DNA of 64,000 bases, from positions 725 to 64,724 of the forward strand of contig JBAVZU010000066.1 in the NCBI GenBank assembly GCA_049588915.1, in the 5' to 3' direction. The position numbers were made by a program, and so were the translations under genes. Positions 1,455 through 39,549 of the stretch are shown here, in pieces. Every line of letters begins with the position of its first letter. The first letter of the stretch is position 1. The notes under the pieces were generated by a model. The model had not been told where the DNA came from. It worked only from the letters and a program-made list of their open reading frames with translations, and searched no databases. The DNA comes from Candidatus Sulfotelmatobacter sp. (GTDB lineage: Bacteria > Acidobacteriota > Terriglobia > Terriglobales > Acidobacteriaceae).

Positions 1455-1533
1455 TGTCTTTTGTGGCCGAATCTTGATCGATTATTGCAGCAGCGGACGC
1501 TCTTATCTGTCAAGCATCATCAGAGGCTTTAAA

Positions 1534-3675: not shown

Positions 3676-3822
3676 AGGGCGGCCTTTAGCCGTGATCAAA
3701 TCAGACGTTCATTAGACGAGTAGGGCACTACTACGTTGGTTTGCGTGCTTACCACGCGATTAGGCCAAGGCCTCTGGCGGCAATGTGTCGGGATTAATTT
3801 TTGTTTAAAGGAGAGAGTAGAT

Positions 3823-5751: not shown

Positions 5752-5757
5752 TTGTGT

Positions 5758-5795
5758 GGCTCTCGCTCCGGTTCTCGTATCGGGGCGAGGGCTTT
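5758..5795 (+). terminator. Hairpin plus short T-run downstream of the porin-like gene
   Basis: GGCTCTCGCTCCG (5758-5770) pairs with CGGGGCGAGGGCT (5781-5793), allowing G-U pairs. The loop is 10 nt and TTT follows the stem. Confidence 0.4.
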
Positions 5796-5870
5796 GAGCC
5801 TAATACCGTCCGCGCAATTTAAGATCGCATGTCAATCGTGCCGCCGATGATCGTTTTGTTGCCTGCATGA

Positions 5871-8689: not shown

Positions 8690-10681
8690 TTATTCAATTT
8701 TGTTGACCCCACCACTGAACACAATCGGTTGCACAGCCGCTGGGGCGGCAAGTGAAAGAATTGGCGATTGCGAGGTGTCGATCATGCCATCGATGTTCAA
8801 AGACAAACTTCCTTTAGACTTGATACTGATCGTGGCTCCGCTGCCATGGCCGCCCGTCGTGCTGAGGTCGTTGGCAATTGTATAGCCGGTGCCCGGATTC
8901 AGCAGTACCGCTCTGGTAATCGCTCCTGATCCGTTGACAGCGAGAACCTGCAAAGATCCTCCGCTGGCGCCAGATTGCTTAACGGTAAGAACATCGTCTA
9001 CCCGGTACTTCTGTCCATCTGCAGCGGAAGAAAGTGTCCACTTGCCAGCGCATGAATCCGTAGCGTCTTGGTCCCGGGAGTTGATGAAGGATAGACCAAA
9101 TAAGTCCTCGATGCACTTCAATTCGGAGGCGAACTCGAACTGCGTGTGCGTGATCGTATTCTTGCAATAAGGTCCAATACAAATCAGCGGGACCCTAAAA
9201 CCAAGAGTTGGAAGGTTGTCGTTCGTCGGCGGAGGAACGTGATCGTAAAAACCGCCCCAGTCGTCCCACGTGAGCAGCACGATAGAGTGCGCATAGATAT
9301 AGGGATTGGTGAAGTAATTGTTCAAACGGCTTTGTGTCCAAGCTACCCCGCTCGCTAACGTTCCGTAACTAGGATGCTCGCTGAGGGTTTGATCAGTTGG
9401 ACTAAGATAAACGACTTTCGGCAAAGTACAGGCCCTGGAATCTGCTGGCGTTCCATCTGAGTCGATACAAGTATCGCCTGAACCGCATTGCGAATCCAGC
9501 GTACAGGCGTTTGCATGGTTGTTGCTGCACATCCCTGTGCACGCGGCCACGACGGTATCGAAGGCCGTGTCTTGATAGACATGATTCGCCCAGCGCGTGG
9601 GATTGAAATAGATGTTCTGGAAGTAGGCCGGAGCGAGCCAGCTGGGTTTATTGGTGGGCCCGTTGTTATTCGAGAAGTATCCCCAGGATGTCGGTCCGGA
9701 GCCTAGTACGGCCTCTATCCGATCGGCTATCGTAGTCAATGTCAAGCAGGGCGCACCGGAATTTCCGCCAATGCTTTTGTTCGTCGAACAGGTATCACTC
9801 AGAGCTGTACAGCCGGGATCGGTGGAGCAGGATGCAGGCCTTGAGCACTTGGTTCCTGTGAGACATTTGCAAGTGCACGCTACGGTTTTGTTGCTAGTAC
9901 AGACTCCACCGTAATACTGCGTACCGTCCGATGCCTGCGTTGAGATCATGTCCCCGGTATAGGTATAGGGAGGCGTTGATCCGCTGTGAGCGGCCCCGCA
10001 GGTCCAGGAATTGTAAAACCCCCCATGATTGCCCGGATTGCTAGCCGACCCCGCCACAGTCGTGGTCGGGTTATCACTAATCTCATTTGAGGCAGCCGCA
10101 AACAAGTAGGCATGATTCGGTAGTGAGGGTCCGCCCATCGTGGAAAAATGATTGTCGGCTAGGCCGTAAGTCGAGATCAGTTGGTACAAATATGGAATCT
10201 GCGTCTGATCGTAGTAAGATAAGCCCACCGTCGATGGCCAATTCATTGAGCCGTCGGAAAGTTGCTCGATAAACGACGCCTGCGAATGGCTGATATCGCT
10301 GTAGGTTGTCGCGGAATTTTGTAAGTTCAAATTGGTCGGAGTATTAGACTGCTTGCCTATGGTGATCTGCGGGCAGATATCGCCAGTCGTACACTCTGGA
10401 CCGTTTGGTGTGGTGCATTGCAGAGGTTCGCACCAGCCGCCGTTCGCGCAAACATCATGTGTTCCCACCGTCGTGCACGATGTGCTTTGGTTCGTCGTGC
10501 AACGCAGCGGAGAGTGCCCGCCTGAACAGTAGCTCTGCACGCCGGGAAAGGTGCCAAATAGTTCATCAGTCGAACGGTTCTCCTTGATGACGAGGATAAA
10601 ATGGTCGATCGACTGCGCCGAGCACAGAAGCGAGAGGAGAAGTGTTGCGACGAGACAACTAATCTTTATCAGCCACCGCAT
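8690..10681 (-). CDS. Secreted phosphoesterase-family enzyme (phospholipase C / acid phosphatase AcpA type) with cysteine-rich insertions
   Basis: ATG at 10681 with GGAGGAAAT immediately upstream. Signal peptide MRWLIKISCLVATLLLSLLCSAQS. Family motifs IDHFILVIKENRSTDELFG and LLTWDDWGGFYDHVPPP. The longer listed ORF (to 10816) lacks a signal peptide at its N-terminus. Confidence 0.8.
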   Translation of the reverse strand: MRWLIKISCLVATLLLSLLCSAQSIDHFILVIKENRSTDELFGTFPGVQSYCSGGHSPLRCTTNQSTSCTTVGTHDVCANGGWCEPLQCTTPNGPECTTGDICPQITIGKQSNTPTNLNLQNSATTYSDISHSQASFIEQLSDGSMNWPSTVGLSYYDQTQIPYLYQLISTYGLADNHFSTMGGPSLPNHAYLFAAASNEISDNPTTTVAGSASNPGNHGGFYNSWTCGAAHSGSTPPYTYTGDMISTQASDGTQYYGGVCTSNKTVACTCKCLTGTKCSRPASCSTDPGCTALSDTCSTNKSIGGNSGAPCLTLTTIADRIEAVLGSGPTSWGYFSNNNGPTNKPSWLAPAYFQNIYFNPTRWANHVYQDTAFDTVVAACTGMCSNNHANACTLDSQCGSGDTCIDSDGTPADSRACTLPKVVYLSPTDQTLSEHPSYGTLASGVAWTQSRLNNYFTNPYIYAHSIVLLTWDDWGGFYDHVPPPTNDNLPTLGFRVPLICIGPYCKNTITHTQFEFASELKCIEDLFGLSFINSRDQDATDSCAGKWTLSSAADGQKYRVDDVLTVKQSGASGGSLQVLAVNGSGAITRAVLLNPGTGYTIANDLSTTGGHGSGATISIKSKGSLSLNIDGMIDTSQSPILSLAAPAAVQPIVFSGGVNKIE

Positions 10682-10967
10682 ATTTCCTCCAGAATTTCCA
10701 CCAATGCTTATGCGGTTTGTCCGTCGCTGCCCCTTCATCTCCATCCGTGTCGAAAGGATCAACTCCAGGAGACACGACAGGAACGGTAAGCACCGGCTGC
10801 TTAGTAACCGGATCAACCACTACGCAGACCTGTACCATCTGGCCCTGGTATGGAACATCCCACATCTCTGTGCCCTTGACGCAAGTGCGCTGGGCAAATT
10901 GCGACTGAATGGGGCGACGATAACAACCAACTGTAACCAGTAACAGTCCGACCATCACGCACTTCAT
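10659..10967 (-). CDS. Small putative lipoprotein, first gene of the phosphoesterase operon
   Basis: MKCVMVGLLLVTVGC is a lipobox-like signal. The 3' end overlaps the phosphoesterase start by 23 nt. No clear SD and no family recognised. Confidence 0.4.
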   Translation of the reverse strand: MKCVMVGLLLVTVGCYRRPIQSQFAQRTCVKGTEMWDVPYQGQMVQVCVVVDPVTKQPVLTVPVVSPGVDPFDTDGDEGAATDKPHKHWWKFWRKYAVADKD

Positions 10968-11336: not shown

Positions 11337-11777
11337 CTAATTGTCGTGACCAACCAGGTTCGCTGAGAGATACGGGGATGATGACAGGAAACCGCCAATT
11401 TGCAGCTCCATTGGGCGGCCTGCCGTTCCCTGGAGATTGAGCCCGCAGACCTGAAATTGTCCTCCGCCAACCGTATAGTCAGGCTGAGGCAACTCTATGT
11501 CCAGCAAGACGGTGCTGGGCGACGTCGTGGAAGATCCATCATAAAGCTTCACGGCGACCGGCCCCAAAGCGGTGGACCCGGGCGAATTGAGGGCTCCGGC
11601 GATGATACAGTCGGCGACATGTTGTACGCCTGCGACCGCTGGCCTGGTCGCGGAATCGTCGGCACTGCTGTGAACGTTGCTAAATATGGACCACTCTGCG
11701 GTTGTGGTCGCGGCGCGTACAGCTGGTGCGGATCCGAACTTGTAGCTAAAGAAGCAAGCGGCTAGGGTAATGAGCAC
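11337..11777 (-). CDS. Hypothetical small secreted protein
   Basis: GTG start. The hydrophobic N-terminus LITLAACFFSYKFGSAPAVRA is followed by a T/S/G-rich beta-type sequence. Plus-strand ORFs over the same DNA are R-rich and look like antisense. The start is problematic; see the finding at 11777-11815. Confidence 0.5.
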   Translation of the reverse strand: MLITLAACFFSYKFGSAPAVRAATTTAEWSIFSNVHSSADDSATRPAVAGVQHVADCIIAGALNSPGSTALGPVAVKLYDGSSTTSPSTVLLDIELPQPDYTVGGGQFQVCGLNLQGTAGRPMELQIGGFLSSSPYLSANLVGHDN

Positions 11778-12153: not shown

Positions 12154-12212
12154 TTCATGACCATAAGATTAAAAAGCGATGAATTAAGATCGGTTTGATT
12201 GACAAGCCCAAC
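12154..12212 (+). repeat. Copy B of the duplicated 59-nt intergenic element
   Basis: See copy A. The mini-ORF here reads MTIRLKSDELRSV. It lies about 145 nt upstream of the ATG at 12358. Confidence 0.85.
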
Positions 12213-12357
12213 CGGCATGATATTGTGCCGTCAAGTGGCCATTACCCTCTGTTGTTAGAGCAATAAGTGTCGACACTGCCCGCAAGTATTTGAAGAATTG
12301 AGTCCTGTCGTTGAAACAAGACTTACTGCCTTGCCCACCATTGAGGCCAGTAACGAT

Positions 12358-13968
12358 ATGAAATATTTCGAAATCCTGATTGTTTTAGTGCTGGCGATTG
12401 TTCCCCGCCTGAGCGCGACGTTAACCCCGACAACCAGTGTGCTTTCGTCATGGCTCAATCCATCCGCCTACGGGCAGGTGGTGAACTTTAGCGCAGTTGT
12501 CACCTCAGATCTGGGGACACCCCCGGATGGGGAAATGGTCACCCTCGAGCAAGGATCGAAAATACTGGGGAAGGCGCCCTTGAGTGCCGGCACGGCGATT
12601 TTCATGATCGCCACGCTAACGAGGGGCGCGGACGATATCAAAGCGATCTATCCCGGCGATTCGAATTTTGCGAAGAGCACTTCGAACGTTGTGGAAGAAA
12701 TCGTAGACAAGGCCCCGACATCGACCACCTTGGCATCGTCCGAGAATCCGTCAAATGTTGGGCAGGCGGTGACTCTTACTGCTATCGTGACGCCACAATA
12801 CAGTGGCACGGCCACCGGAACCGTGACCTTTAACAGCGGAAATAAGAAGCTCGGGACTGTGACGCTTTCCCGCGGCGTCGCCACGATTAAGACGAGTGGG
12901 TTAGCGGTCGGTTCCGATTCAATCACAGCCGTCTATAACGGAAGCAATACGTGCTTCGACAGCAACACTGGACTTACCCAAACCGTGGGCGCAGGGGCGT
13001 TCACATATCCCACCATGACCTGGAACGGCATCACGCGTTATTACGAAGTTTTTGTGCCGACGGTTCTGGCTGCGAATCCTGCCATGCTTTTGATGCTGCA
13101 TGGCACGAGGATTACCCCTTCCACCGGTTCTGACCCAACGCCTGTCATCACATTGAACTGGGGCTGGCAAAGCTACGCCAACCGGTACGAATTTATCCTG
13201 GTGCAGCCCGCCTCGACGTTTGACCCGTCATCGAATCAGTGGAACTGGAATTCGTTTTGCATGGACGGAACAACATTGTGCAATCCGTACGGAGCCAATG
13301 GAGGAGCATTTTCCTACGCGGAGGATTGTGGCTCAGCGGACGGGGAATGCCCCGACGATATCGGCTTCCTGGGAAACTTGATCACAACTCTAACTGCTCA
13401 GTACGGCGTGAATCCGAATACCATTTACGTTACGGGCTTCTCCGCGGGCGCGCAGATGACCGAACGTGTCGGTGTGGAACTCTCCGGCCTGGTGGCGGCA
13501 ATTGCTCCGGTTTCGGGTCCGCTGGTCAATGCGCAAGGGACCGTTCCTCCGCCATTGCCTCTGCCAACCTCCGTCCCGTCTCCGTTTCCGCCCATTTCCG
13601 TCATGGAGTGGCAAGGTACCAAGGATGAAAATTTGTGGCCCTGCGACTATGGCACAACCAACTACTCAAATGTAGTTTTCACTGTGGGCACGGTGGATGA
13701 CACTTTCAACTACTGGGTGCAACAGGATCAATGCAGTACGGTCGAAACCACGCAGACCCTGTGTTTGAATGGTTCGCCCAACAACGCGAGCGATTATCCA
13801 TCTCCGGGTATTCCGGGCGATACTGGTAACCTTGCTACCGGCTGCGCGGTCCCTCCCGGAGGCCAAAACATTGAAGTGCAATTTGTTTGGGAACCGGGCA
13901 TCGCCCACACCTGGAATGAGAACAACATTCCCTACATCTGGAGTTTCTTGTCCGCTCAACAGAAGTGA
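12358..13968 (+). CDS. Secreted protein with Ig-like (Big_3_5-type) repeats and a C-terminal PHB-depolymerase/LpqC-family esterase domain
   Basis: ATG 12358 with signal/anchor MKYFEILIVLVLAIVPRLSA. Repeated blocks of roughly 90 aa (..A.Y.GD.NF..S.S..) are followed by an alpha/beta-hydrolase part with LMLHGT and the nucleophile elbow GFSAGAQM. Confidence 0.75.
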   Translation: MKYFEILIVLVLAIVPRLSATLTPTTSVLSSWLNPSAYGQVVNFSAVVTSDLGTPPDGEMVTLEQGSKILGKAPLSAGTAIFMIATLTRGADDIKAIYPGDSNFAKSTSNVVEEIVDKAPTSTTLASSENPSNVGQAVTLTAIVTPQYSGTATGTVTFNSGNKKLGTVTLSRGVATIKTSGLAVGSDSITAVYNGSNTCFDSNTGLTQTVGAGAFTYPTMTWNGITRYYEVFVPTVLAANPAMLLMLHGTRITPSTGSDPTPVITLNWGWQSYANRYEFILVQPASTFDPSSNQWNWNSFCMDGTTLCNPYGANGGAFSYAEDCGSADGECPDDIGFLGNLITTLTAQYGVNPNTIYVTGFSAGAQMTERVGVELSGLVAAIAPVSGPLVNAQGTVPPPLPLPTSVPSPFPPISVMEWQGTKDENLWPCDYGTTNYSNVVFTVGTVDDTFNYWVQQDQCSTVETTQTLCLNGSPNNASDYPSPGIPGDTGNLATGCAVPPGGQNIEVQFVWEPGIAHTWNENNIPYIWSFLSAQQK

Positions 13969-14111
13969 GAAATGCGATCGCAGCGAGAAGACGTCGAATT
14001 CAATGGGCAGCAATGACAGATTGGAAAATGAATCGAAATTAAACCGAACCCTGAGGAAGATCAAACGTGGAAGTTGAGCGGGTGGCAGACAGCAGCGAAG
14101 TAATAATAAGG

Positions 14112-14354
14112 ATGAAGGAATTGACCAGCTATATCGCCGAAAAGGTGATCAAGGGTAAGAGTGAGATCACTGAGGACACCCCGCTGGTCTCTTCCGGTTT
14201 AGTCGATTCTTTCGCGTTGATCGGGATTTTCCTGGAACTGCAAAGGATCGCTAGTCGCAAGGTACCCGCCAGCAAGGTTCAGGTAAAAGACATGGATACG
14301 GTGCGGCTCATGTTTGCTACCGCCGAGCGGTTCGGAAAGCCAGTCAAGAATTAG
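14112..14354 (+). CDS. Stand-alone acyl/peptidyl carrier protein, DltC-like
   Basis: ATG 14112 follows AAGG. The product is 80 aa. The phosphopantetheine-serine motif GLVDSFALIGIFLELQ resembles the DltC-type DS(M/L)..V.L...LE. Confidence 0.7.
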   Translation: MKELTSYIAEKVIKGKSEITEDTPLVSSGLVDSFALIGIFLELQRIASRKVPASKVQVKDMDTVRLMFATAERFGKPVKN

Positions 14355-14404
14355 AGGGCAGATAGAAAGCACGCGCATGCCCAAACTCCTCTGGATGCGC
14401 CAAG

Positions 14405-16003
14405 TCACTGCGCCTGCTTCGCCAGCATCTCCGTAATTTTCCCCCGATCAATTTTGCCGTTCACATTCAGAGGAATCTGCGGAAAGTGGCAAAGGCGACT
14501 GGGAACCATGTACCGCGGCAGTCTGGTTTCACAAGCGGAAATGACTTCCTTGTCGCGCCCCGGGTCTGATCCCGACAACACGCCGACAATGCCGGAAGCC
14601 GAACCGTCCGATAGCGGCCACGGAATCGCAACCGCCAATTCGGTGCGTGCGGCTTCACGCAGTACCAGGTCAATCTCCGGCAACTCAACACGGTACCCAT
14701 TCACCTTCACCTGAAAGTCGCGGCGGCCGAGGTAATACAGGCAACCCCGTTCATCCTGCTGCACGAGATCGCCTGTGCGATACCAAAGCTGATCGCCTGT
14801 GTGCTTCAGGCGAACAAAGTTTCTTGCTGTCTTTTCAGCATCGTTCAGGTACCCGTGCGTGACCTGCGATCCGCCGAGGCACAACTCGCCGCTTTCGCCG
14901 GTCGGCACTGGCGCGAGATTCTCATCCACCGCGCACACCTGTTGTCCATCAAACGGCCAGCCGATGGGCACCAATCCGCGCACGCACTCCGAGGGCGAAG
15001 CTGCCGAATTCCACCGATACCAAGTGATCGCAATCGTCGTTTCAGTCGGCCCATAGAGATTTTCGAGAATCGAGTTGTTTGCCGCCTGCTGCCAAGCCTC
15101 TGCCAAGCTCGACGAAAGCGCTTCACCGCAAAACAGGCTCCACCGCAACGTCGGGAATGCTCTGGGTTCTAGTAGGCCTAGCTTCGACGCGAACATGGCC
15201 ACCGACGGCACCGAGAACCAGCACGTCAGTTGCTTTTCATCTATCAAAGTTGCCGGAGTGAGTGTCTTTTCGGGATAGGGGCAAAGCGTCGCGCCCGCAT
15301 CCCAACAGGTAAAGAGGTCATGCACGCCGAGATCAAAGGTGAGATCGAAGTTCTGCGAACAACGATCTTCAACATTCATGCCAAAGCGCTTCGCTGCATA
15401 CTCCATGTACGCCACGACGTTCGATTGGCTGACCGCCACTCCCTTAGGCACGCCCGTGCTGCCCGAAGTGAAGAGCAGATAAGCCGTATCGCTTCCGTCG
15501 ACAATCGGATCACAGGGATCAGCGATCTTCGACTCTGGGGCAGAGATGACGCGGTGCGCACACGAAAACGCGCGATCCGGTTCCCAGCCGGAATCCGGGA
15601 TGATTAGGGTTAGCGGCTGGTCGAATCGCGGAAGCAATGACGCCAGCATCGCGGCACACTCGCGGCTCACCACAACTGTCTTGCATTCCGAGGCGCGCAG
15701 CATGAGGAGAGTCCGCTCAAGAGGGAACTTGGGATTGAGAGGAACGTAGCCTCGTCCGCTGGCCAGCACCGCTAAGACTCCGCCATAGGCTGCTACACTG
15801 CGATCGGCAAGCACGGCAACTAGCTTTTCGGAGTGATCCAAACTCTCCGTGAGGCAAGTGGTGATTCTTCCCGCATAGTTCCACAGTTCCTCGTAACTCA
15901 GCAATTGCTCGCCAAGTTCGAGGGCCGACCTCCCGGGATTGGCGAGCAGGGACCGGAGGAAACCGCTGATCAAGCTTCTCGGTTTTTCTGATGGCGGATT
16001 CAT
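14405..16003 (-). CDS. Stand-alone adenylation enzyme (AMP-binding family, DltA/NRPS A-domain-like)
   Basis: Core motifs LFTSGSTGVPKGV, YGPTE, YRTGDL, GRRDFQVKVNGYRVELPEI and NGKIDR. Confidence 0.85.
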   Translation of the reverse strand: MNPPSEKPRSLISGFLRSLLANPGRSALELGEQLLSYEELWNYAGRITTCLTESLDHSEKLVAVLADRSVAAYGGVLAVLASGRGYVPLNPKFPLERTLLMLRASECKTVVVSRECAAMLASLLPRFDQPLTLIIPDSGWEPDRAFSCAHRVISAPESKIADPCDPIVDGSDTAYLLFTSGSTGVPKGVAVSQSNVVAYMEYAAKRFGMNVEDRCSQNFDLTFDLGVHDLFTCWDAGATLCPYPEKTLTPATLIDEKQLTCWFSVPSVAMFASKLGLLEPRAFPTLRWSLFCGEALSSSLAEAWQQAANNSILENLYGPTETTIAITWYRWNSAASPSECVRGLVPIGWPFDGQQVCAVDENLAPVPTGESGELCLGGSQVTHGYLNDAEKTARNFVRLKHTGDQLWYRTGDLVQQDERGCLYYLGRRDFQVKVNGYRVELPEIDLVLREAARTELAVAIPWPLSDGSASGIVGVLSGSDPGRDKEVISACETRLPRYMVPSRLCHFPQIPLNVNGKIDRGKITEMLAKQAQ

Positions 16004-17403
16004 CAGTTCCCAGGGTTCCGTTGGACCGGTTTGCTCGAATCGAACCGCTGTTCAGCATGAAGAGCGGCAACGGAATCCGAGGGCTTGTCCGTCGCGTGCG
16101 CTCTATGTTCCAGAATATCGTAGAGCCGATCGGCGACAATACGATCACCCTCGATGTTCAGGTGTGAGAGGCCGACATAGAGCGAACTCTTCTGGTCATC
16201 GAGGAGGTCCCCAAGATAATAGAAATCCGGGCGCTTGAGCTCGCGACCCTTCTGATAGACCGCCTGATACATCAGGTCCAGATTCGGGACCGTGCGAGAA
16301 TCCGTCTGCAACACCTGTTGCTCGGAGGGTGTCAGTTGCTTGTGCCCGACCAACAGATTGGGATACCACACGAAGATCGCGCGAAATCCATACTGCTTCG
16401 CCAGCAGGTTCACGATGCCCATGTTTTGCAGGTAGTTTTTCATCACCGCGGCGGGAAGCGTCTCCGTGTCGAGCACACGTTGCCTGTAGGGCTCAACATG
16501 AAACGGTTTTTTGACAGCAATCCTCTCCAGAAGGCGATAGGTATTGGTCTGGCTGAAGTAGGAGAAGCTTGCCTTCTCCGAAGCGCCCCAGTTGTCGAGA
16601 AAATCTCTAAAGGAGTTGTAGTTGCTGTGCACATCGGCGCGGCCGCTCTGATAGGCGGTAAACGCTTCGGTTCCACCATCGTAAAAAAGCACGACATCGG
16701 GTTTGCGGGCAGCGTGTTTGAGGTTCTCGATCAGTCCAACCATTTCCTGAGTGTTGGCCCAGCCTTTTTCCGCGTAATTCACAATGCAAACCGGCTTGCC
16801 TGCCTTTTCGTAGTCTAGCGCCACGAGTGAGGGGATACTATCTTCGTCTGGCGCGCCTGCGCTCCACATCACAGAATCTCCGAACATCCATATGGTGAAG
16901 GTCGTGTTGTCGCATCGGGTGTGAAGCGTCCGGCGAACTCCATCCTGATCGATGGCCAGCATCGCGCCCTGGTAAGGAGCATGGCGCCAAAGCACATACT
17001 GATGGTAGAGCACATGGTTCGCTTGCTCGAATTCTCTCCGGTACTCACGCTGCGTCGAGTTACCGTTTTCGGCAACATTGAAAGCAGGTTCCATGGCGTT
17101 CTGCGCCGCGGGAAGATATTGGCGGTACGAATAAAGCTCGACCGCGCCGAGCAGAATCACAGCCAGCGTCACAACAACGCAAAGGCGGATGGCGAAGTAC
17201 TTGAAGAGTGATGTGTAGTGCGTCGCGGGTGTTGGGCGACTCTTTAGGGTCGAATCACTCTTTGCTGGAACAAGCGGCGTCAACGGCACAAGTTGCTGAA
17301 CCTCGCGGTCGGTCGGAGTCTGATTGAATGCTAGCATAGTGCTTTGCCCTCTGAATCTTGCTCGCTCAGGATGACCGCGAGGATTTGTGCCCGACACTAT
17401 CAA
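16003..17403 (-). CDS. Membrane-anchored SGNH/GDSL-type protein, DltD-like candidate
   Basis: N-terminal TM segment YFAIRLCVVVTLAVILLGAV and the motif MFGDSVMWSAG (GDS block). It lies between the MBOAT and adenylase genes. Its stop overlaps the adenylase start (TGATG). Confidence 0.6.
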   Translation of the reverse strand: MIVSGTNPRGHPERARFRGQSTMLAFNQTPTDREVQQLVPLTPLVPAKSDSTLKSRPTPATHYTSLFKYFAIRLCVVVTLAVILLGAVELYSYRQYLPAAQNAMEPAFNVAENGNSTQREYRREFEQANHVLYHQYVLWRHAPYQGAMLAIDQDGVRRTLHTRCDNTTFTIWMFGDSVMWSAGAPDEDSIPSLVALDYEKAGKPVCIVNYAEKGWANTQEMVGLIENLKHAARKPDVVLFYDGGTEAFTAYQSGRADVHSNYNSFRDFLDNWGASEKASFSYFSQTNTYRLLERIAVKKPFHVEPYRQRVLDTETLPAAVMKNYLQNMGIVNLLAKQYGFRAIFVWYPNLLVGHKQLTPSEQQVLQTDSRTVPNLDLMYQAVYQKGRELKRPDFYYLGDLLDDQKSSLYVGLSHLNIEGDRIVADRLYDILEHRAHATDKPSDSVAALHAEQRFDSSKPVQRNPGN

Positions 17404-17427
17404 ACCGCCTAGTTGTTAGGTCGCAGT

Positions 17428-18930
17428 CTAGAACAGCGCGTACATGACGGGTCCCGTTTCGGCTTGTCCGGGGTGGAAAATCACGCTCAGGTACAACGCC
17501 AGGACGACTACTACTGGCATAATCCATACCCAGCGTTCGCGCGCCAGAGTGCCGAGGAGGGTGGCAAGCAGTCTGCGCAGGGTTCCGTTTGCTGTTTCGG
17601 TCGAGGTACGCGTGGCTTCTGCCAATCTATCCAAGAGCGCTCCGGCGGCGATGACCGCGAAATAGCCAAAAAACGCAAGCAGCGTCATCACATAGAAGCT
17701 GTGGTCCAAAGTCAGGTGACGGTAGGTGCCGAGTGACGCCAGTGCCTTCAGCATCGCGAATGACTGCCGCGTGTTTTCTGCGCGAAAGAAAACGTAGCCC
17801 ACGCAAACCGCGGAAAATGTCAGCCACCACGAGATTGCCATCGCAACCACCCCGGTCCACTCGAAGCCCAAGCGCTTGCGAAATTCCTGCCATTGCCGGT
17901 GCAAGACCAGCAAAATGCCGTGATAGATGCCCCACAGCATGAGTAAAAGAGTCCCTTTGTGCCATAGTCCGAAGACAAACATCGCGATCACCAGCGACAG
18001 GTTGCGCCACCAGACCTCGCGGCGCGCGGTCGCGAGTGGCAGAAAAAGGAAGTCACGAATCCAGAAGGACAGTGACATGTGCCAGCGCGTCCAGAAGACG
18101 GATATGGTGGTGGATAGATATGGCCGGTTGAAGTTCTCGTGTAACTGGATCCCAAACAGGCGGGCGCCGCCAATCATGATGTGAGTCCAACCGCAAAAGC
18201 TGAAATAGAGCTGGAATCCATAAGCGATAATCAGGAACCACACATCGATTCCACTTAGGGGCGCGGCGTTCTGACTGGAAAACGCATTGTCGAAAATCGC
18301 ATCCACGCCTGGGCCTGCATACAGGCCGCCAGCCATGACATTGGCGAGAACCGACATCAGCACTCCGATCGAAACGCGGCGCACTCCAGTTTTCAGATCG
18401 TCTTCGCTCACAGCCCAGTCCTGCTTAAACTGCGGCAGCATGCTGGACATGCGGCAGATCGGTCCCTGCAGCACAGTCGGCCAAAACGCCATGTAGAGGC
18501 AGAACTCGAGGAGCGTGGGGTTCAAATCCTCTTCGCGGTAGAGCTCTAAAAGATAACTCAGAGCCTGGAAAGTCCAGAAAGAAACCCCCAGAGGGAAGAT
18601 CATTCGCTTGAGCAGCGCAAAGGGAGAATCGCCCGGCGCGGCGGCGCCGAGCAAGGGCAGGTACTTGAACACGCTCAGAAAGGCCAGATTGAAAAGTATT
18701 CCAACCCACAGTCGCGCGGCGGTGATATTTTTCTTCAGCCATTCGCCCAAGGCGTAGTTCATGAGGGAGCTGAAAATCAGGACAACGATCAGCCATCCGC
18801 CCCAACTGTAATAAAAGAGCCAGCTTGCAATGAGGTAGAGTACCTGCCGCGCGCTGGCGGAACGAAGGCGCACCGCGATCAACCACACCAACAGCACGCC
18901 AATTCCGTATCGGAGGAATTCTGATGTCAT
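17428..18930 (-). CDS. MBOAT-family membrane-bound O-acyltransferase (DltB/AlgI/PatA type)
   Basis: Multi-TM protein with the MBOAT motifs FWTRWHMSLSFWIRDFLFLPL and FGLWHKG (conserved His). Confidence 0.85.
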   Translation of the reverse strand: MTSEFLRYGIGVLLVWLIAVRLRSASARQVLYLIASWLFYYSWGGWLIVVLIFSSLMNYALGEWLKKNITAARLWVGILFNLAFLSVFKYLPLLGAAAPGDSPFALLKRMIFPLGVSFWTFQALSYLLELYREEDLNPTLLEFCLYMAFWPTVLQGPICRMSSMLPQFKQDWAVSEDDLKTGVRRVSIGVLMSVLANVMAGGLYAGPGVDAIFDNAFSSQNAAPLSGIDVWFLIIAYGFQLYFSFCGWTHIMIGGARLFGIQLHENFNRPYLSTTISVFWTRWHMSLSFWIRDFLFLPLATARREVWWRNLSLVIAMFVFGLWHKGTLLLMLWGIYHGILLVLHRQWQEFRKRLGFEWTGVVAMAISWWLTFSAVCVGYVFFRAENTRQSFAMLKALASLGTYRHLTLDHSFYVMTLLAFFGYFAVIAAGALLDRLAEATRTSTETANGTLRRLLATLLGTLARERWVWIMPVVVVLALYLSVIFHPGQAETGPVMYALF

Positions 18931-19413
18931 TGGTTAGTCACCACTGCGTGTTTCGCACGCGGCGTCAGAAGCAGCGTGCCCCAAAGCGCATACTGGGGCG
19001 GACTAGCAAGTTCGAAATTTTCGCATCAATGGATTCATTCGCTGCGCCTGTTGTGAGTGTCCCGTGACCCTCACCGCATTTCCCGCCGGCCCAGCACATT
19101 AGGGGTCCACGATATTGATGCTTCGTTACACGCAGGTTGCGGGGATGTAAACGCTCGATGAAAACAAAGTGCAAACTCCTTGGCACCGGTTTTCTCGCTC
19201 CAATATGTCCCCACATACTGCTTGAGGACAGTCACTGGCACACTCGAAGAGTTCTTTGCAAAGGGCGCCTTTTTCTGCTCGTGCAAATTTAGGTAGATGT
19301 CCGAGACGCGCTGAGCTGTCGTCATGGGGCGCATGCGAAGGGGCGGTAGTTCGTCAAAAGTCGATTTTCCAAAGTCCCTTGCTCTTTTTGCGTCCTTGGA
19401 TTATAAAGTGTCT

Positions 19414-19566
19414 CATCTGGCGTTCGGGAATCGCGGTGAAAATCCGCTACTACCCCGTAACTGTAATCGCTGAGAACTGAACTTGGAGCCATGCTCCGGC
19501 CACTGAGGTTTTCTCGGGAAGGCTGTTCAGATTCGGTGAAGCGTGAGTCAGGAGACCGGCCAGATG
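19414..19566 (+). promoter_or_regulatory. Cobalamin (B12) riboswitch aptamer upstream of cobU
   Basis: P1 pairs CATCTGGC (19414-19421) with GCCAGATG (19559-19566). Conserved core GGTGAAAATCCGC..CCCGTAACTGTAA..GCCACTG..GGGAAGGC..AGTCAGGAGACCGGCC. Downstream, GCCTC (19686-19690) can pair with the SD GAGGT (19696-19700) just before ATG 19706. Confidence 0.9.
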
Positions 19567-19705
19567 CCAATCTAGGCTGATCCGGCTTCGATGGGAGAGC
19601 TGGATGGCGTTCCTTGCCAGGTGCAGCAAGCCCCGGCAACGAGAACCTGCCACATGAAATGATCCCGCTGTCCTGGGCAGAACGTGCCTCGGTCAGAGGT
19701 AATCC

Positions 19706-20251
19706 ATGCAAGAGATAGAGCGCAGGGCGATCACGCTCGTGCTCGGTGGCGTCCGTAGCGGAAAGAGCCGCTTTGCGCAGAAGCTCGCGGAAAAAGCTTC
19801 TTCCGTGGCTTTTGTTGCGACCGCGAAAGCGCTGGATGCAGAGATGCGCGATAAGATCCGCCGCCATCAGCAGGAACGTCCCAAGCACTGGCGGACTCTG
19901 GAAGAGCCGCTCGAGTTGGCGCGAGTCTTGGCCGAGCGCCCCCCACAGTTCGACGTGGTGCTGGTGGATTGTCTTACTCTTTTCGTAGCCAATGTTCTCG
20001 AAGAGAAGCCGCCGACGCCGGATAAACGCATCGCCGGCTTAACGGACGCATTGCGAACCGCATGTGCGTCCGTGGTGCTCGTTTCGAATGAGGTCGGCAG
20101 TGGCGTAGTTCCCGCCTATCCTGCGGGACGTCAATTTCGCGATCTCCTGGGCGAAGTTAATCAGAAAGTGGCGGCAATCGCCGATAACGTTGTGTTCATG
20201 GTCGCGGGACTTCCAATGTTGCTGAAGGGACACATCGAGGTGCGGCCATGA
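19706..20251 (+). CDS. cobU: Adenosylcobinamide kinase / adenosylcobinamide-phosphate guanylyltransferase
   Basis: LVLGGVRSGKSRFAQ P-loop, about 180 aa, in a cob/btu context behind a B12 riboswitch. Confidence 0.9.
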   Translation: MQEIERRAITLVLGGVRSGKSRFAQKLAEKASSVAFVATAKALDAEMRDKIRRHQQERPKHWRTLEEPLELARVLAERPPQFDVVLVDCLTLFVANVLEEKPPTPDKRIAGLTDALRTACASVVLVSNEVGSGVVPAYPAGRQFRDLLGEVNQKVAAIADNVVFMVAGLPMLLKGHIEVRP

Positions 20252-21102
20252 TGCGATTGCTTGCGTTGGCGACATTATGCTTGGCGCTGCCTGCCTTCGC
20301 GTCGCGAACGGTCACGGATGAACTGGGTCGCGCGGTAACGGTTCCAGACCATCCTCATCGCCTGGTGTGCCTGATGCCGAACTTGGTTGACGACGCGTAC
20401 GCGTTGGGAGCGGGGCCGGACGTAATCGCCGTGCCGGATTACACCAAGTATCCGGCGGAAGCCAAGACCAAGCCGAGCATCGGGTTGCCACTGAATCCCT
20501 CGATCGAAACCATCGTGTCTCTTCATCCGGATCTCGTCCTCGCCAGCGGTGATCTGAACCCCATGGCAACCGTGAATCAGTTGGAGGAGTTAGGAATCAC
20601 GGTATTCACGGTCAATCCGCACGGCATCGAGGGGATCTACAAATCAATTGCGAGCCTGGGACAGGCGTTAAACCGCGAGCAAGCGGCCGACAAACTGGTC
20701 GGCGTTTTGCGTGACCGCGAGGCTGCAGTGCGCCTGCGCGTTCACGGCAAGCCATCCGTCAAAGTTCTGATGCTGGTCTGGTATGACCCGATCATCACCG
20801 TCGGCAAAGACGCCTACATCACGCAGCTGATTGAAATCGCGGGTGGGCATTCGGTTACCGGTGACATCTCGCAGGAGTGGCCCCAGGTCAGCCTTGAAGT
20901 TGTTCTCGCTCGCGCGCCAGACGCCCTGCTATTGGTCCGAGGTTCCAAGATGTCGCTCGACGCCATCCGCAGCCGCCCGGGATGGACCAGTCTGCCCGCT
21001 GTAAGAGATAAGCGGGTTTATTACGTGGATGACCGCATTGAATATCCGAGCCCAGTCGCCTTCGATGCACTGGAGGATTTGGCGAAACAATTCTATCCGT
21101 GA
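20248..21102 (+). CDS. btuF: Periplasmic substrate-binding protein of a FecCD/BtuCD-type ABC importer (cobalamin-binding candidate)
   Basis: Signal peptide MMRLLALATLCLALPAFA and a TroA/BtuF-like layout (HRLVCLMPNLVDDAYALG..DLVLAS). ATGA overlap with cobU. Confidence 0.7.
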   Translation: MMRLLALATLCLALPAFASRTVTDELGRAVTVPDHPHRLVCLMPNLVDDAYALGAGPDVIAVPDYTKYPAEAKTKPSIGLPLNPSIETIVSLHPDLVLASGDLNPMATVNQLEELGITVFTVNPHGIEGIYKSIASLGQALNREQAADKLVGVLRDREAAVRLRVHGKPSVKVLMLVWYDPIITVGKDAYITQLIEIAGGHSVTGDISQEWPQVSLEVVLARAPDALLLVRGSKMSLDAIRSRPGWTSLPAVRDKRVYYVDDRIEYPSPVAFDALEDLAKQFYP

Positions 21103-21152
21103 AGTTCAAGCGTGAGATGGGCGCTCCATCTCCAAACTCATAACTGCGAACC

Positions 21153-21295
21153 AGCGGGATGATCGGGAAGCGCGGTGCAAGTCCGCCACTACCCCGTAAC
21201 TGTAAGCGAAGAGGCTCGGCCACACGCCACTGGAGGAAGGTTTCCGGGAAGGCGGCCGCAGCCGATGACTCGCGAGTCAGGAGACCGGTCCCGCT
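21153..21295 (+). promoter_or_regulatory. Second cobalamin (B12) riboswitch aptamer, upstream of the TonB-dependent receptor
   Basis: P1 pairs AGCGGGA (21153-21159) with TCCCGCT (21289-21295). Core GGTGCAAGTCCGCCACTACCCCGTAACTGTAA..GCCACTGG..GGGAAGGC..AGTCAGGAGACCGG. SD GAGGGG at 21304-21309, ATG at 21316. Confidence 0.9.
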
Positions 21296-21315
21296 AAACT
21301 TCCGAGGGGAAAACC

Positions 21316-23760
21316 ATGTTCCGACTTTCGCGCACGTTCCAATTGGCTTTTTGTTTCGTTTTCGCTTTTGCTGGTATCGCGTTCACCTTGCCTAACACTT
21401 CCATCCACGGAACCGTATCCGACCCCTCTGGCGCGGTGCTTGCCAACGCCAAAGTGGAATTGATCGAAAACGATATTCCCGTGTTAACCGTAATGACGGA
21501 CGCCAAGGGTGAATATGCGATCAATCTGAAACCCTCGCCTGGTTCCCGGCTCCGGGTATCTTTTTCTGGGTTCCGGACAGTCGAGAAGGTGCTGTCGCCA
21601 GCGGGCGACATCCGCGATTTGACCGTGGACATGAGCCTCCCGCTCGCGTCCTTCGCTGAGCAGATCACTGTGACGTCGACGGGAACGCCCACGCCCCAGG
21701 CGCAGTTGGGTGCGACCGTGACCGCACTGACCGAGCCCGACTATCAGGGAACGCGCGATATTCAAGAAGGATTACGGCTTGTTCCCGGCCTTCAGGCCGT
21801 GCAGACTGGCCAAGCCGGCGGAACAACCGCTTTATTTATTCGCGGCGGCGGCAGCGATGCGAACAAGATACTGATCGACGGAATCCCGGCGAATGATGTG
21901 GGAGGAGAATTCGAATTCGCAAACCTCGCAAGCGCTGCAATCGGGCGGGTGGAGGTTCTTCGCGGACCGAACAGCGTCCTATACGGGTCGGACGCATTGG
22001 CCGGCGTTGTCAGTTTCACAACTCCAAGGGGAGACACACCGCTGCCTTTGCTCACTTACTTGATCGATGGGGGCAACTTCGGTACTTATCATCAGGAAGG
22101 AACCTTCAGCGGACTTTACCGGCGGTTGGACTACTTTTCCGATTACTCGCGTTTCGACACGGGAAATTCAATCCCTGACAATACATTTCACAATGGCACC
22201 TTCGCGGGGAGCTATGGCTGGAAGTTCTCGCCGAACTCCACTCTGCGCGCGACGGTCCATCACGATCAGGTCGCTTCCGGTCAGCCCAATGCAATTGACC
22301 TGTACGGCATACCAACCGAGGCGAAGCAAGCCAGCGAAGATAGCTACTACGGGTTCACGTGGGAAAACCACCCGACAGCAAACTGGCACAGCCTTTTGCG
22401 CTATGGAGGGATCAGGCTGCGTTCAAGTTTCACCGAGTTCGCGCCCACAGGGATTCCACAATATTTTGACGGAGTTCTGGAAGATTATCTGGGCGCGCCG
22501 GTCACCATCCGAGGTGCGAACGGGTACACCGTAAGCGGCCAGGCCGTATATCAGTACGTAGAAATCTACCCCAACTCTTTTCCGGATTCCACCGACAAGG
22601 ACTTTGTCTACGCGCAATCGGACTATCGCTTCAACCAGCACCTTCTAGGACTCTTTGCATTTCGCTACGAGGACGAGCGTGGCTATTCCGAAAGCCCGAC
22701 CAGTTCCATCGAGCGAGGCAATTACAGCTACACCTTCCAACTTCAGGGCGATATTCGCAATCGGTTGTTCTATACGCTTGGGGGCGGTATTGAAGACAAC
22801 GGCCTGTTTGGGTTCGCCGGGACACCACGCGTTTCGCTGGCTTGGCAAGCGGCGCGCGGGGATACTGGATTCTTCAGCGGCACAAAAATTCGCGCCAGCT
22901 ATGGAGAAGGCATCAAGGAACCTAGCGTCCTTGATCAGACTACGTCGCTCTACGCCTTGCTTGAAAGTCTGTCTGGTGGCGCGCAACTCATCTCGCAATA
23001 CCGCGTTGGCGCGATCGGTCCGGAGCGTTCGAAAAGCTACGACGGCGGAATCGATCAATTGCTATTCGCTGGTCGCGGACGCGCGAGCCTAACCGCGTTT
23101 CACAACGAGTTCACGGACGGCATTGAGTACATCCCGCAACCGGGTCTCATCGATCTCGGGGTGCCCAGCGCCATTGCGGCCGCGGCTGTCTACGGCGCGA
23201 CCGTGAACTCCCAAGCCTATCGGGCGGAAGGAATTGAAACCGAAGTGGAGTATCAAATCACAAACAATCTCTTTGCCCGCGCGGGTTATACGTACCTGGA
23301 TGCGCGAATTCAGCGTTCGTTCTCGAGTGATGCGATTGGACCGAGCTTTAACCCGAACTTTCCGAATGTCCCAATCGGAATTTACTCTCCTTTGATTGGT
23401 GCACGCCCCTTCCGGCGTGCCCCCCACACCGGTTATTTCGAAGTGGGCTACCATGTAAAACGTTTTTTTACCGGCCTTCGCGGCACGCTGGTGGGGCGCA
23501 GAGACGACAGCGACTTCCTTGAATTCGACGCCAACGGCGGAACATCACTTCTGTTGCCCAACCGTAATCTCGACGGCGCTTATCAGAGGATTGATTTAAC
23601 GGCCAGCTATCAAATCAATCGGTACGTGGCCGCACAAGGCAGCTTTCAGAATCTGCTGAGCCAGCACTATGACGAGGCATTCGGTTATCCGGCAACTCCG
23701 TTCATGTTTCGCCTTGGACTGAAGTTCTCCCTGGGAGGTGAATCGTGGCCAGGGAAATAG
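21316..23760 (+). CDS. btuB: TonB-dependent receptor (cobalamin/corrinoid uptake candidate) with a carboxypeptidase-regulatory-like N-terminal domain
   Basis: Signal peptide, then IHGTVSDPSGAVLANAKVELIEND (CarboxypepD_reg-like). Plug motifs GLQAVQTGQAGGTTALFIRGG and NKILIDGIP, then a long barrel. The riboswitch lies directly upstream. Confidence 0.8.
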   Translation: MFRLSRTFQLAFCFVFAFAGIAFTLPNTSIHGTVSDPSGAVLANAKVELIENDIPVLTVMTDAKGEYAINLKPSPGSRLRVSFSGFRTVEKVLSPAGDIRDLTVDMSLPLASFAEQITVTSTGTPTPQAQLGATVTALTEPDYQGTRDIQEGLRLVPGLQAVQTGQAGGTTALFIRGGGSDANKILIDGIPANDVGGEFEFANLASAAIGRVEVLRGPNSVLYGSDALAGVVSFTTPRGDTPLPLLTYLIDGGNFGTYHQEGTFSGLYRRLDYFSDYSRFDTGNSIPDNTFHNGTFAGSYGWKFSPNSTLRATVHHDQVASGQPNAIDLYGIPTEAKQASEDSYYGFTWENHPTANWHSLLRYGGIRLRSSFTEFAPTGIPQYFDGVLEDYLGAPVTIRGANGYTVSGQAVYQYVEIYPNSFPDSTDKDFVYAQSDYRFNQHLLGLFAFRYEDERGYSESPTSSIERGNYSYTFQLQGDIRNRLFYTLGGGIEDNGLFGFAGTPRVSLAWQAARGDTGFFSGTKIRASYGEGIKEPSVLDQTTSLYALLESLSGGAQLISQYRVGAIGPERSKSYDGGIDQLLFAGRGRASLTAFHNEFTDGIEYIPQPGLIDLGVPSAIAAAAVYGATVNSQAYRAEGIETEVEYQITNNLFARAGYTYLDARIQRSFSSDAIGPSFNPNFPNVPIGIYSPLIGARPFRRAPHTGYFEVGYHVKRFFTGLRGTLVGRRDDSDFLEFDANGGTSLLLPNRNLDGAYQRIDLTASYQINRYVAAQGSFQNLLSQHYDEAFGYPATPFMFRLGLKFSLGGESWPGK

Positions 23761-39471: not shown

Positions 39472-39549
39472 TGGTAGGCCCGAATGGACTCGAACCATCG
39501 ACCTCATCCGTGTCAAGGATGCGCTCTAACCAGACTGAGCTACGGGCCT
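39472..39549 (-). tRNA. tRNA-Val (anticodon GAC), CCA encoded
   Basis: Hand-folded cloverleaf. Acceptor AGGCCCG/CGGGCCT. D arm GCTC-AGTCTGGTTA-GAGC. Anticodon arm CATCC-TTGACAC-GGATG. T arm GATGG-TTCGAGT-CCATT. Discriminator A followed by CCA. Confidence 0.95.

Follow-up and report, generated by a model that had tools for sequence, protein, structure and literature searches.

A conserved five-gene locus of Candidatus Sulfotelmatobacter predicted to aminoacylate an envelope polymer through a carrier protein and a fused-shuttle MBOAT

Introduction

The bacterial MBOAT proteins that work with SGNH-type partners are at present divided into two classes: the Dlt pathways, in which the acyl donor is a carrier protein and the microprotein DltX is separate, and all others, which use acyl-CoA, have a fused acyl shuttle and lack carriers (PMC12148441). 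In the non-Dlt MBOATs the shuttle is a hexapeptide borne on two extra transmembrane (TM) helices, and its invariant tyrosine has been demonstrated experimentally to be the covalent acyl shuttle in both PatA and DltX (PMC12148441). The AlmEFG system of Vibrio cholerae, which places glycine or diglycine on lipid A, works differently; VC1579 (almE) encodes its glycine-carrier ligase, and AlmG passes glycine directly from AlmF to lipid A (PMC4278540). Here we describe a locus in a 64,000-nt window, by which we mean the whole stretch of DNA analysed and in which all coordinates are given, from a contig of a Candidatus Sulfotelmatobacter metagenome-assembled genome (MAG). The locus encodes an MBOAT, an SGNH-type protein, a stand-alone adenylase, a carrier protein and an Ig-like/esterase protein, and it combines elements of all three kinds of system.

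An earlier note on this DNA had described four of these genes as a Dlt-like O-acylation module in a host with an outer membrane. The outer membrane is not what is new, since Dlt systems in diderms are already known, namely dltXABCD in Dickeya and Pectobacterium and the dra locus in Bordetella (PMC5541007; reference list of PMC9410548). The data presented below lead us to propose, with a probability of about 0.6, that the five genes encode a pathway that depends on a carrier protein and aminoacylates an envelope polymer outside the cytoplasm.

Results

Five genes are retained together in related genomes

The four open reading frames (ORFs) of the earlier note are present in the window, with WHMSLSFW and FGLWHKG in the MBOAT, a GDS motif in the SGNH-type protein, LFTSGSTGVPKG, YGPTE, YRTGDL and GRRDFQVKVNGYR in the adenylase and the serine motif GLVDSFALIGIFLELQ in the carrier. 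The stop codon of the SGNH gene overlaps the start codon of the adenylase gene (cTGATGaat, base 16003 being common to both), and the adenylase gene converges with the carrier gene, about 50 nt separating the stops at 14405 and 14354. The carrier gene, on the opposite strand, lies directly 3' of the Ig-like/esterase gene. In agreement with the earlier note, a search for a DltX-like mini-gene upstream of the MBOAT and around the carrier found none.

A scan of one genome per GTDB species with aligned SGNH orthologues gave 69 loci. They all come from MAGs of Acidobacteriota (Terriglobales, Acidobacteriaceae, Sulfotelmatobacter), with no named isolate among them, and the window proteins were compared with these loci by tblastn. 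The layout is kept, MBOAT, SGNH and adenylase following one another on one strand and converging with esterase and carrier on the other, even where the enzymes have diverged to 49-81% identity. The four core genes (MBOAT, SGNH, adenylase and carrier) occur together in 53 of the 69 loci and all five genes in 49, the rest being mostly contig ends or SGNH paralogues that lack an MBOAT. The esterase gene is present in 60 loci and always adjoins the carrier gene. When all 17 genes of the first 25.6 kb of the window were tested, only the five recurred, in 57-67 loci each; a small ORF at 11337-11777 was found in one of the 69 loci, and the family 2 glycosyltransferase (GT2), the phosphoesterase and the whole B12 cluster that flank the five genes were found in none. 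The four genes are thus tightly co-conserved in relatives, as the note's proposal would have it, although its limit of four does not stand: because the Ig-like/esterase gene is co-conserved too, the unit is one of five genes.

Within this unit the carrier is the most conserved protein, with orthologues 70-95% identical, which fits expectation if it must dock with several partners; for the enzymes the lowest identities to orthologues are 31-49% and the highest 78-90%. The MBOAT-less SGNH paralogues (loci L054 and L056-L059) are also without adenylase and carrier, indicating that these two genes track the MBOAT.

The family appears to be confined to uncultured Terriglobales-type Acidobacteria (Candidatus Sulfotelmatobacter and relatives). 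Its homologues form thousands of clusters at 90% identity and are very abundant in soil and peat metagenomes; the carrier profile search yielded 3844 homologue clusters, and the 120 matches listed in the carrier-profile and MBOAT homologue searches are all acidobacterial orthologues. No analogous cluster of MBOAT and carrier genes outside the Acidobacteria was found in a plasmid collection, which is small. The MBOAT matches in that collection (Sphingomonas, Leptospira, B. thuringiensis, Pseudomonas and Bacillus) are pairs of an MBOAT and a partner protein with no carrier or adenylase annotated beside them in the regions viewed, the Bacillus record being unannotated and represented by ORFs only. 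Weak carrier matches in Leptolinea and Streptomyces have no MBOAT there.

An AlgI/PatA-type MBOAT with a predicted acyl shuttle

The MBOAT matches Pfam family PF03062 at 2e-13 and DltB in the PDB at 7e-31, in an alignment that spans both histidine motifs. Against the DltB equivalog TIGR04091 it scores 156.6 bits (1e-45), below the cutoff of 375. The reference set consisted of the S. aureus dltXABCD operon and six other MBOATs that adjoin a partner-protein gene and have no carrier gene in the region viewed, taken from the plasmid collection. In blastp five of these six share 31-34% identity with the window protein (167-201 bits, alignments of ∼400 residues) and the sixth, a second Leptospira MBOAT, shares 25% (128 bits), compared with 26.7% (120 bits over 281 residues) for S. 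aureus DltB. The JGI annotation of its orthologues is AlgI. By these relationships the MBOAT is classed as AlgI/PatA-type rather than DltB-type.

The conserved histidines H284 (WHMSLSFW, 18079-18081) and H324 (FGLWHKG, 17959-17961) align with H289 and H336 of DltB, by our own count on the PDB alignment, and both are invariant in 34 orthologues. Beyond the DltB-equivalent core, hydropathy identifies two extra C-terminal TM segments (residues 414-432 and 467-485), after which the protein ends in TGPVMYALF. The same tail, TGP[V/I/L]MYALF followed by the stop, is present in 55 of 58 orthologous MBOATs. All six comparators end in F[IL]Y[FY]xF; S. aureus DltB is without such a tail, and DltX ends in NNFIYNEF. 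The hexapeptide of the window protein is a variant of FxYxxF, as its first position is V, I or L and not F, and from its sequence and position we take it to be a fused acyl-shuttle motif that stands in for the separate DltX microprotein. Such a fusion explains why the window contains no DltX gene.

The kinship of the MBOAT raises a different possibility, namely that an ordinary acetyl-CoA-dependent MBOAT-SGNH O-acetyltransferase, following the logic of PatA/PatB or AlgI/AlgJ, is linked to a separate adenylase-carrier pathway that has another transferase, as AlmG is in Vibrio. This would account for the 31-34% identity to five of the six MBOATs from carrier-less loci, which have the same type of fused tail, against 27% to DltB, and for the name AlgI given by JGI, and it conforms to the described non-Dlt MBOAT/SGNH pathways, which use acyl-CoA and have no carrier (PMC12148441). 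The adenylase subfamily, moreover, occurs without an MBOAT in Vibrio and on plasmids of Desulfovibrionales. We nevertheless consider the arrangement unlikely. Translational coupling links the adenylase to the SGNH gene, and adenylase and carrier stay with the MBOAT in 53 of the 69 loci while the other neighbours all change. The conserved set includes no AlmG/LPLAT-type, condensation or thioesterase protein, and the SGNH protein and the esterase, being extracytoplasmic by prediction, would be out of reach of a cytoplasmic carrier. The paralogues of the SGNH protein that lack an MBOAT lack the adenylase and carrier as well. The lack of carrier and adenylase that accompanies the acyl-CoA donor in the non-Dlt pathways is contradicted genomically by the co-conservation of both genes with the MBOAT in those 53 loci.

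The adenylase resembles AlmE

The adenylase matches PF00501 at 8e-64 and TIGR01733 at 334 bits, above the cutoff of 317.4, and keeps Asp235 and Lys517 of A-domains (D224 and K517 at the calibrated positions). It is thus an amino-acid adenylation enzyme and not a fatty-acyl ligase, in line with what the earlier note had supposed. It does not reach the DltA equivalogs, scoring 261.4 bits against TIGR01734 (cutoff 559.85) and 263.3 bits against NF003417 (cutoff 476), and is 27% identical to S. aureus DltA. The ten specificity-code positions were calibrated on an alignment with E. coli EntF, which reproduced the known EntF code, DVWHFSLVDK. At these positions the window enzyme reads DLHFLCLIAK (D224, L225, H228, F263, L290, C292, L316, I324, A325 and K517), a code that is invariant in 55 of 55 full-length orthologues, while S. 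aureus DltA reads DLMVFCTVAK.

The best single-domain relatives of the adenylase in the PDB are the stand-alone enzymes 8k4r, 4oxi and 6akd, at ∼300 bits (299.9 for 4oxi) compared with 194 for DltA. The substrate-pocket segment alone scores 103 bits against 4oxi and 6akd, 101 against 8k4r and 39-44 against DltA. In the pocket alignment the code of 4oxi is DLHLFCLIAK, identical to that of the window enzyme at eight of ten positions, the differences being a Leu/Phe swap. We take 4oxi to be VC1579 (AlmE), as its PDB molecule name agrees with the annotation of V. cholerae VC1579 (VC1579 naming, PMC3652848). Judged by its pocket, the adenylase is AlmE-like. The activated acid, which the earlier note had called unknown, is narrowed by the extracted code to what is probably glycine or a similarly small amino acid, with glycine itself standing at about an even chance.

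LgrA module 2 was discarded as the closest relative of the adenylase, its 327 bits being the sum of two A-domain matches (141 + 166). In a search of the representative library the matches listed were filled by giant multi-module nonribosomal peptide synthetases.

Stand-alone adenylases 46% identical to the window enzyme are encoded on Solidesulfovibrio magneticus pDMC1 (L082 5373-8938) and S. carbinolicus pDCAR1 (L085), and by our own reading of the alignment their code, DLHFLCLIAK, is the same. The adenylase gene is followed by a carrier gene and by a gene for a 241-residue protein without a Pfam match, and a CDP-glycerol glycerophosphotransferase (TagF-like) gene is nearby. No MBOAT was found near the adenylase-pocket matches on these plasmids or in Vibrio tubiashii. 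As the Solidesulfovibrio loci have the same code and a carrier but no MBOAT, the adenylase subfamily evidently serves different downstream transferases, and the plasmid locus may represent another uncharacterised aminoacylation system in a diderm.

The carrier weakly resembles stand-alone aminoacyl carriers

The phosphopantetheine serine of the carrier (Ser33, codon 14208-14210) lies in the invariant LVSSGL[VI]DSF. The carrier profile matches stand-alone aminoacyl carriers in the PDB, comprising 6cxt (2.8e-5), DltC (7r49, 1.8e-4, and 1dv5, 4.5e-4), PigG and PltL, and is no closer to DltC than to the other stand-alone carriers. Helix II (DSFALIGIFLELQ) resembles that of S. aureus DltC (DSFQTVGLLLEIQ), and the scores against the DltC equivalogs NF003464 (cutoff 68) and TIGR01688 (cutoff 52.35) are 20.9 and 16.1 bits, respectively. 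The carrier resembles DltC weakly and is no DltC equivalog.

The best NCBIfam match of the carrier is the OlsHI ornithine-lipid carrier, an identity rejected at 22 bits (E 1.6e-4) against a cutoff of 130. A secondary-metabolite or aminolipid pathway, in which adenylase and carrier make a soluble or lipid product that is then processed by the MBOAT and the hydrolases, would agree with this top match, with the profile matches to PigG/PltL-type carriers of pyrrole natural-product pathways and with the position of the nearest Streptomyces carrier match in a natural-product-like cluster. We judge it very improbable, however, as the OlsHI score is far under its cutoff and the OlsHI pathway, found in planctomycetes, uses a GH3-like enzyme and not an MBOAT (PMC12493201). 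The conserved set contains no condensation, ketosynthase, thioesterase, reductase or N-acyltransferase gene, and the MBOAT retains the extracytoplasmic shuttle tail typical of polymer acylation.

The SGNH-type partner belongs to a separate family

The SGNH protein of the window gave no Pfam, NCBIfam or PDB sequence match. Lipase_GDSL is weakly matched by 12 of 15 orthologues (best 6e-5), and in the orthologue profile the GDS and His blocks align with those of a lysophospholipase L1-like esterase. Foldseek with an AlphaFold2 model built from a shallow alignment (predicted local distance difference test, pLDDT, 54) gave SGNH esterases and OatA's C-terminal domain as best matches. With the corresponding MBOAT model (shallow orthologue alignment, pLDDT 57) the top match was DltB, and the PDB fold-search matches included no other bacterial MBOAT. 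Both models are poor, and so they were used for fold class only, geometry being left aside. The assignment to the SGNH fold, drawn from the weak GDSL matches and this Foldseek search, is tentative. A single N-terminal TM helix, with invariant residues, spans residues 70-88 of the 466-residue ORF of the SGNH protein, and both the GDS serine S177 (16873-16875) and the block-V histidine H414 (16162-16164) are invariant.

Neither the window protein nor the 15 orthologues matched Pfam DltD (PF04914) at E values up to 10, and AlgX was matched by neither the window protein nor orthologues. An hhalign comparison of the orthologue profile with S. aureus DltD returned a probability of 0.1%, and in blastp none of the proteins paired with the six comparator MBOATs was similar to the SGNH protein. 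The fit to an O-acetylation family that the earlier note had entertained was therefore not found; on the evidence of these searches the SGNH partner is a separate family of its own, unrelated to DltD in sequence, and it is predicted to be the terminal acyl-transferase.

Outside the Acidobacteria the plasmid collection contains a single homologue of the SGNH protein, on Gemmatirosa kalamazoonensis plasmid 2 (L076 8632-9969); it is GDSL-like and 32% identical. It adjoins a 1344-residue ORF whose C-terminal part matches carbamoyltransferase domains, and no MBOAT, adenylase or carrier was found within 9 kb of it.

The esterase, the neighbouring genes and the probable acceptor

The product of the esterase gene comprises two Ig-like Big_3_5 domains (Pfam 1e-32) and an alpha/beta hydrolase domain with the nucleophile elbow GFSAG. 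The hydrolase domain is of the PHB-depolymerase/feruloyl-esterase type, matching NCBIfam esterase_phb and the PHA-depolymerase catalytic domain, both below cutoff, and feruloyl esterase 8jh8 in the PDB at 6e-4 over the GxSxG region. Its N-terminus is hydrophobic, in the manner of a signal or anchor. N-terminal signals or anchors are found in the SGNH protein and the esterase and not in the adenylase or carrier, and the MBOAT is the sole component predicted to cross the membrane.

Homologues of polysaccharide-locus genes are frequent within 8 kb of the anchor gene: sulfotransferases in 25-26 of the 69 loci, a Wzx flippase in 18, GT2 in 16 and phosphoesterases in 41. Of these, the window itself has the GT2 and phosphoesterase only. 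Because of the Wzx, GT2 and sulfotransferase neighbours, which constitute statistical evidence, a surface polysaccharide is favoured as the acceptor. The earlier note had called the acceptor unknown; these genes narrow it to a surface polysaccharide or exopolysaccharide, possibly sulfated, at roughly even odds.

Several genomes encode a second, paralogous SGNH protein (∼50% identity) without an MBOAT, ∼12 kb from the five genes and inside a polysaccharide locus. One such locus (L054 3343-15089), on the same contig as locus L034, contains GT2, three sulfotransferases, a 569-residue protein, a PF04185 phosphoesterase, an Esterase_PHB protein and a Wzx-type flippase; MBOAT-less SGNH paralogues also occur in L056-L059. 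The presence of the SGNH paralogue in a sulfotransferase/Wzx locus suggests that a sulfated glycan is modified there by paralogues of the enzymes studied here.

The same relay of carrier, MBOAT and SGNH protein might instead serve a lipid of the periplasmic leaflet (lipopolysaccharide or lipid A core, a glycolipid or a hopanoid) or peptidoglycan, and so tune surface charge. AlmE, the closest characterised relative of the adenylase, serves lipid A glycylation, PatA and PatB are an MBOAT-SGNH pair acting on peptidoglycan (PMC12148441), and PF04185 phosphoesterases are near the five genes in 41 of the 69 loci and in the window at 8690-10816. Set against this are the frequent Wzx, GT2 and sulfotransferase neighbours, although this evidence is statistical, and the SGNH paralogue inside such a locus, while lipid A or peptidoglycan genes are not among the co-conserved set. 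We regard such an acceptor as improbable, slightly more so than the acetyl-CoA route discussed above.

The phosphoesterase of the window, 708 residues on the minus strand, belongs to the phospholipase C/acid phosphatase family; a long insertion in it is rich in Cys, Thr, Ser and Gly, and the C-terminus is extended. Many loci have distant paralogues of it (22-29% identity) near the five genes; the gene itself is not conserved.

Coordinates and flanking features

The features of the locus are collected in Table 1. The candidate promoter listed there is weak and position-based, and scans of the region for promoters and terminators gave numbers of sites not above chance.

Table 1. Features of the five-gene locus, with the gene calls of the source contig.
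Feature	Position	Strand	Source-contig gene call	Remarks
Ig-like/esterase	12298..13968	+	536 aa, start 12358	fifth conserved member; likely start 12358 (MKYFEIL...); secreted or anchored
Carrier protein, stand-alone	14067..14354	+	95 aa, GTG 14067	95 aa from GTG 14067 or 80 aa from ATG 14112 (14112..14354)
Adenylase, amino-acid type	14405..16003	-		532 aa; stand-alone, no fused carrier; AlmE type (predicted)
Adenylase substrate-pocket segment	14999..15361	-		residues 215-335; holds 9/10 code residues
SGNH/GDSL-type protein, membrane-anchored, periplasmic (predicted)	16003..17403	-	444 aa, ATG 17337, AGAGGG Shine-Dalgarno-like site 5' of ATG	466-aa ORF, likely 444 aa from ATG 17337
MBOAT, AlgI/PatA-type (by sequence relations)	17428..18930	-	489 aa, start 18897	489-500 aa
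MBOAT C-terminal hexapeptide V-M-Y-A-L-F-COOH (Tyr497)	17431..17448	-		putative acyl-shuttle motif, FxYxxF type
Candidate sigma-70-like promoter TTGACA-16-TGnTATTGT	12199..12226	+		upstream of esterase-carrier pair; 10/12 positions; weak, position-based

On the MBOAT side the locus is bounded by a B12 salvage/uptake cluster that is not kept beside it in relatives. The cluster is headed by two cobalamin riboswitches at 19401-19578(+) and 21102-21307(+) (Rfam RF00174, 88 and 99.5 bits) and consists of CobU (19706-20251), a periplasmic binding protein (20248-21102), a TonB-dependent receptor (21316-23760), a permease, an ABC ATPase and a CobT-like gene. Elsewhere in the window, three consecutive large ORFs of 745, 671 and 563 residues at 1438-7562(+), which match no Pfam family and lack counterparts in the 69 related loci, are preceded by a 458-residue ORF with Ig-like (Cep192_D4/HYDIN-type) domains. 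A tRNA gene lies at 39475-39549(-) (Rfam RF00005, 68 bits).

Discussion

From what was read directly, that is gene content, motifs, family relations, the specificity code and co-conservation, we infer every chemical step of the following scheme together with its membrane topology, amino acid and acceptor. In the cytoplasm the AlmE-type adenylase would activate a small amino acid, likeliest glycine, which would be held as a thioester on the phosphopantetheine arm of the carrier. The aminoacyl-carrier would then dock at the cytoplasmic face of the AlgI/PatA-type MBOAT, where H284 and H324 would catalyse transfer of the aminoacyl group to Tyr497 in the protein's own periplasmic VMYALF tail. The membrane-anchored SGNH protein would receive the group on Ser177 and esterify the acceptor, likeliest a surface polysaccharide or exopolysaccharide and possibly a sulfated one. 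Finally, the Ig-like/alpha-beta-hydrolase esterase, predicted to be co-transcribed with the carrier, would trim or relay the ester, a role that would parallel those of Ape1 in peptidoglycan O-acetylation and of FmtA and DltE in D-alanylation, the latter two acting on D-alanyl esters (PMC12505958, PMC13653941). In its most specific form, in which the fused-shuttle MBOAT takes glycyl from the carrier and not an acyl group from acyl-CoA and acts with the new SGNH protein and the esterase in the reversible glycylation of a surface polysaccharide, the scheme has a little less than an even chance of being correct.

Several observations weigh against carrier-dependent aminoacylation by this locus. 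The MBOAT is closer to the MBOATs of carrier-less loci than to DltB, the one known carrier-using MBOAT, and could simply use acetyl-CoA. The similarity of the carrier to DltC is weak, at 21 bits against a cutoff of 68; its gene lies on the opposite strand, and three loci that are complete in other respects (L026, L043 and L068) have no such gene within 8 kb. Adenylase and carrier as a pair have no intrinsic tie to MBOATs, as the Desulfovibrionales plasmids and Vibrio AlmG demonstrate, and the SGNH family is likewise found working without an MBOAT, in the acidobacterial paralogues and in Gemmatirosa. In the SGNH protein the canonical Asp at His-3 is replaced by G411 (G-x-S-H in place of D-x-x-H, residues 409-414), which is invariant, and DGGT replaces the block III GxND at residues 241-245, again invariantly in the orthologues; the active site may thus be atypical, as reported for transferase-type SGNH proteins. 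The low confidence of the structural models of both the SGNH protein (pLDDT 54) and the MBOAT (pLDDT 57) also counts here.

How the locus stands to the described systems depends on whether logic or ancestry is considered. It shares with Dlt a stand-alone adenylase, a small carrier, an MBOAT, a tyrosine shuttle, a putative anchored SGNH-fold transferase, an extracytoplasmic polymer as the predicted acceptor and an esterase partner (FmtA and DltE in the Dlt pathways), and in this sense the description of the locus as Dlt-like was well chosen. With respect to ancestry it was not, as the MBOAT is AlgI/PatA-type, the adenylase AlmE-like and the SGNH protein of a separate family. The gene order is not dltXABCD, the host is without teichoic acid, the putative shuttle is fused to the MBOAT whereas DltX is separate in Dlt, and the adenylase pocket is AlmE-like (103 bits) compared with 39-44 bits to DltA. 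Orthology to Dlt was consequently rejected, there being no protein at the Dlt equivalog cutoffs, no match to the DltD family and no separate DltX.

The systems that modify peptidoglycan (PatA/PatB), alginate (AlgI/AlgJ/AlgF/AlgX) and cellulose (WssH/WssI) share with the locus the MBOAT His core, the two extra C-terminal TM helices, the Tyr hexapeptide ending in Phe and, putatively, the anchored SGNH-type partner that adjoins the MBOAT, and an esterase in the locus recalls Ape1. These systems have neither adenylase nor carrier (PMC12148441), in contrast to the locus described here, where the two genes are conserved together and translational coupling involves one of them. The hexapeptide, in addition, begins with V, I or L and not F, and the SGNH partner has no detectable similarity to the partners of the six comparator MBOATs or to Pfam AlgX or DltD. 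The likeness to AlmEFG resides in the diderm host, the stand-alone adenylase with its small carrier and the predicted aminoacylation of an envelope component. In Vibrio, however, the transferase is AlmG. No AlmG-type acyltransferase was found here: among the five conserved proteins only the MBOAT matches an acyltransferase family, and no further gene is conserved. With an MBOAT and periplasmic hydrolase-fold proteins as the conserved enzymes downstream, the locus implies that the acyl group is exported and transferred outside the cytoplasm.

In the literature searched we found no description of an AlgI/PatA-type fused-shuttle MBOAT together with an AlmE-type adenylase, a carrier, a new SGNH protein and an esterase. 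In the locus an adenylase and a carrier are conserved together with an MBOAT whose shuttle is fused, features that the current division places in opposite classes, and if this reflects the true flow of acyl groups then the type of donor is separable from the architecture of the shuttle. Carrier-protein dependence would also have arisen in bacterial MBOATs outside the DltB lineage. The proposal names residues that can be tested, Tyr497 and His284/His324 of the MBOAT, Ser177 of the SGNH protein and Ser33 of the carrier, and predicts glycine as the substrate.

If the proposal is correct, the esterification of surface polymers with amino acids would not be limited to teichoic acids and lipid A but would take in diderm soil bacteria, and the abundant Acidobacteria of peat soils would possess a tunable surface charge. 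The product could affect cell-surface charge, the binding of metals and protons, and resistance to desiccation or phage in acidic peat.

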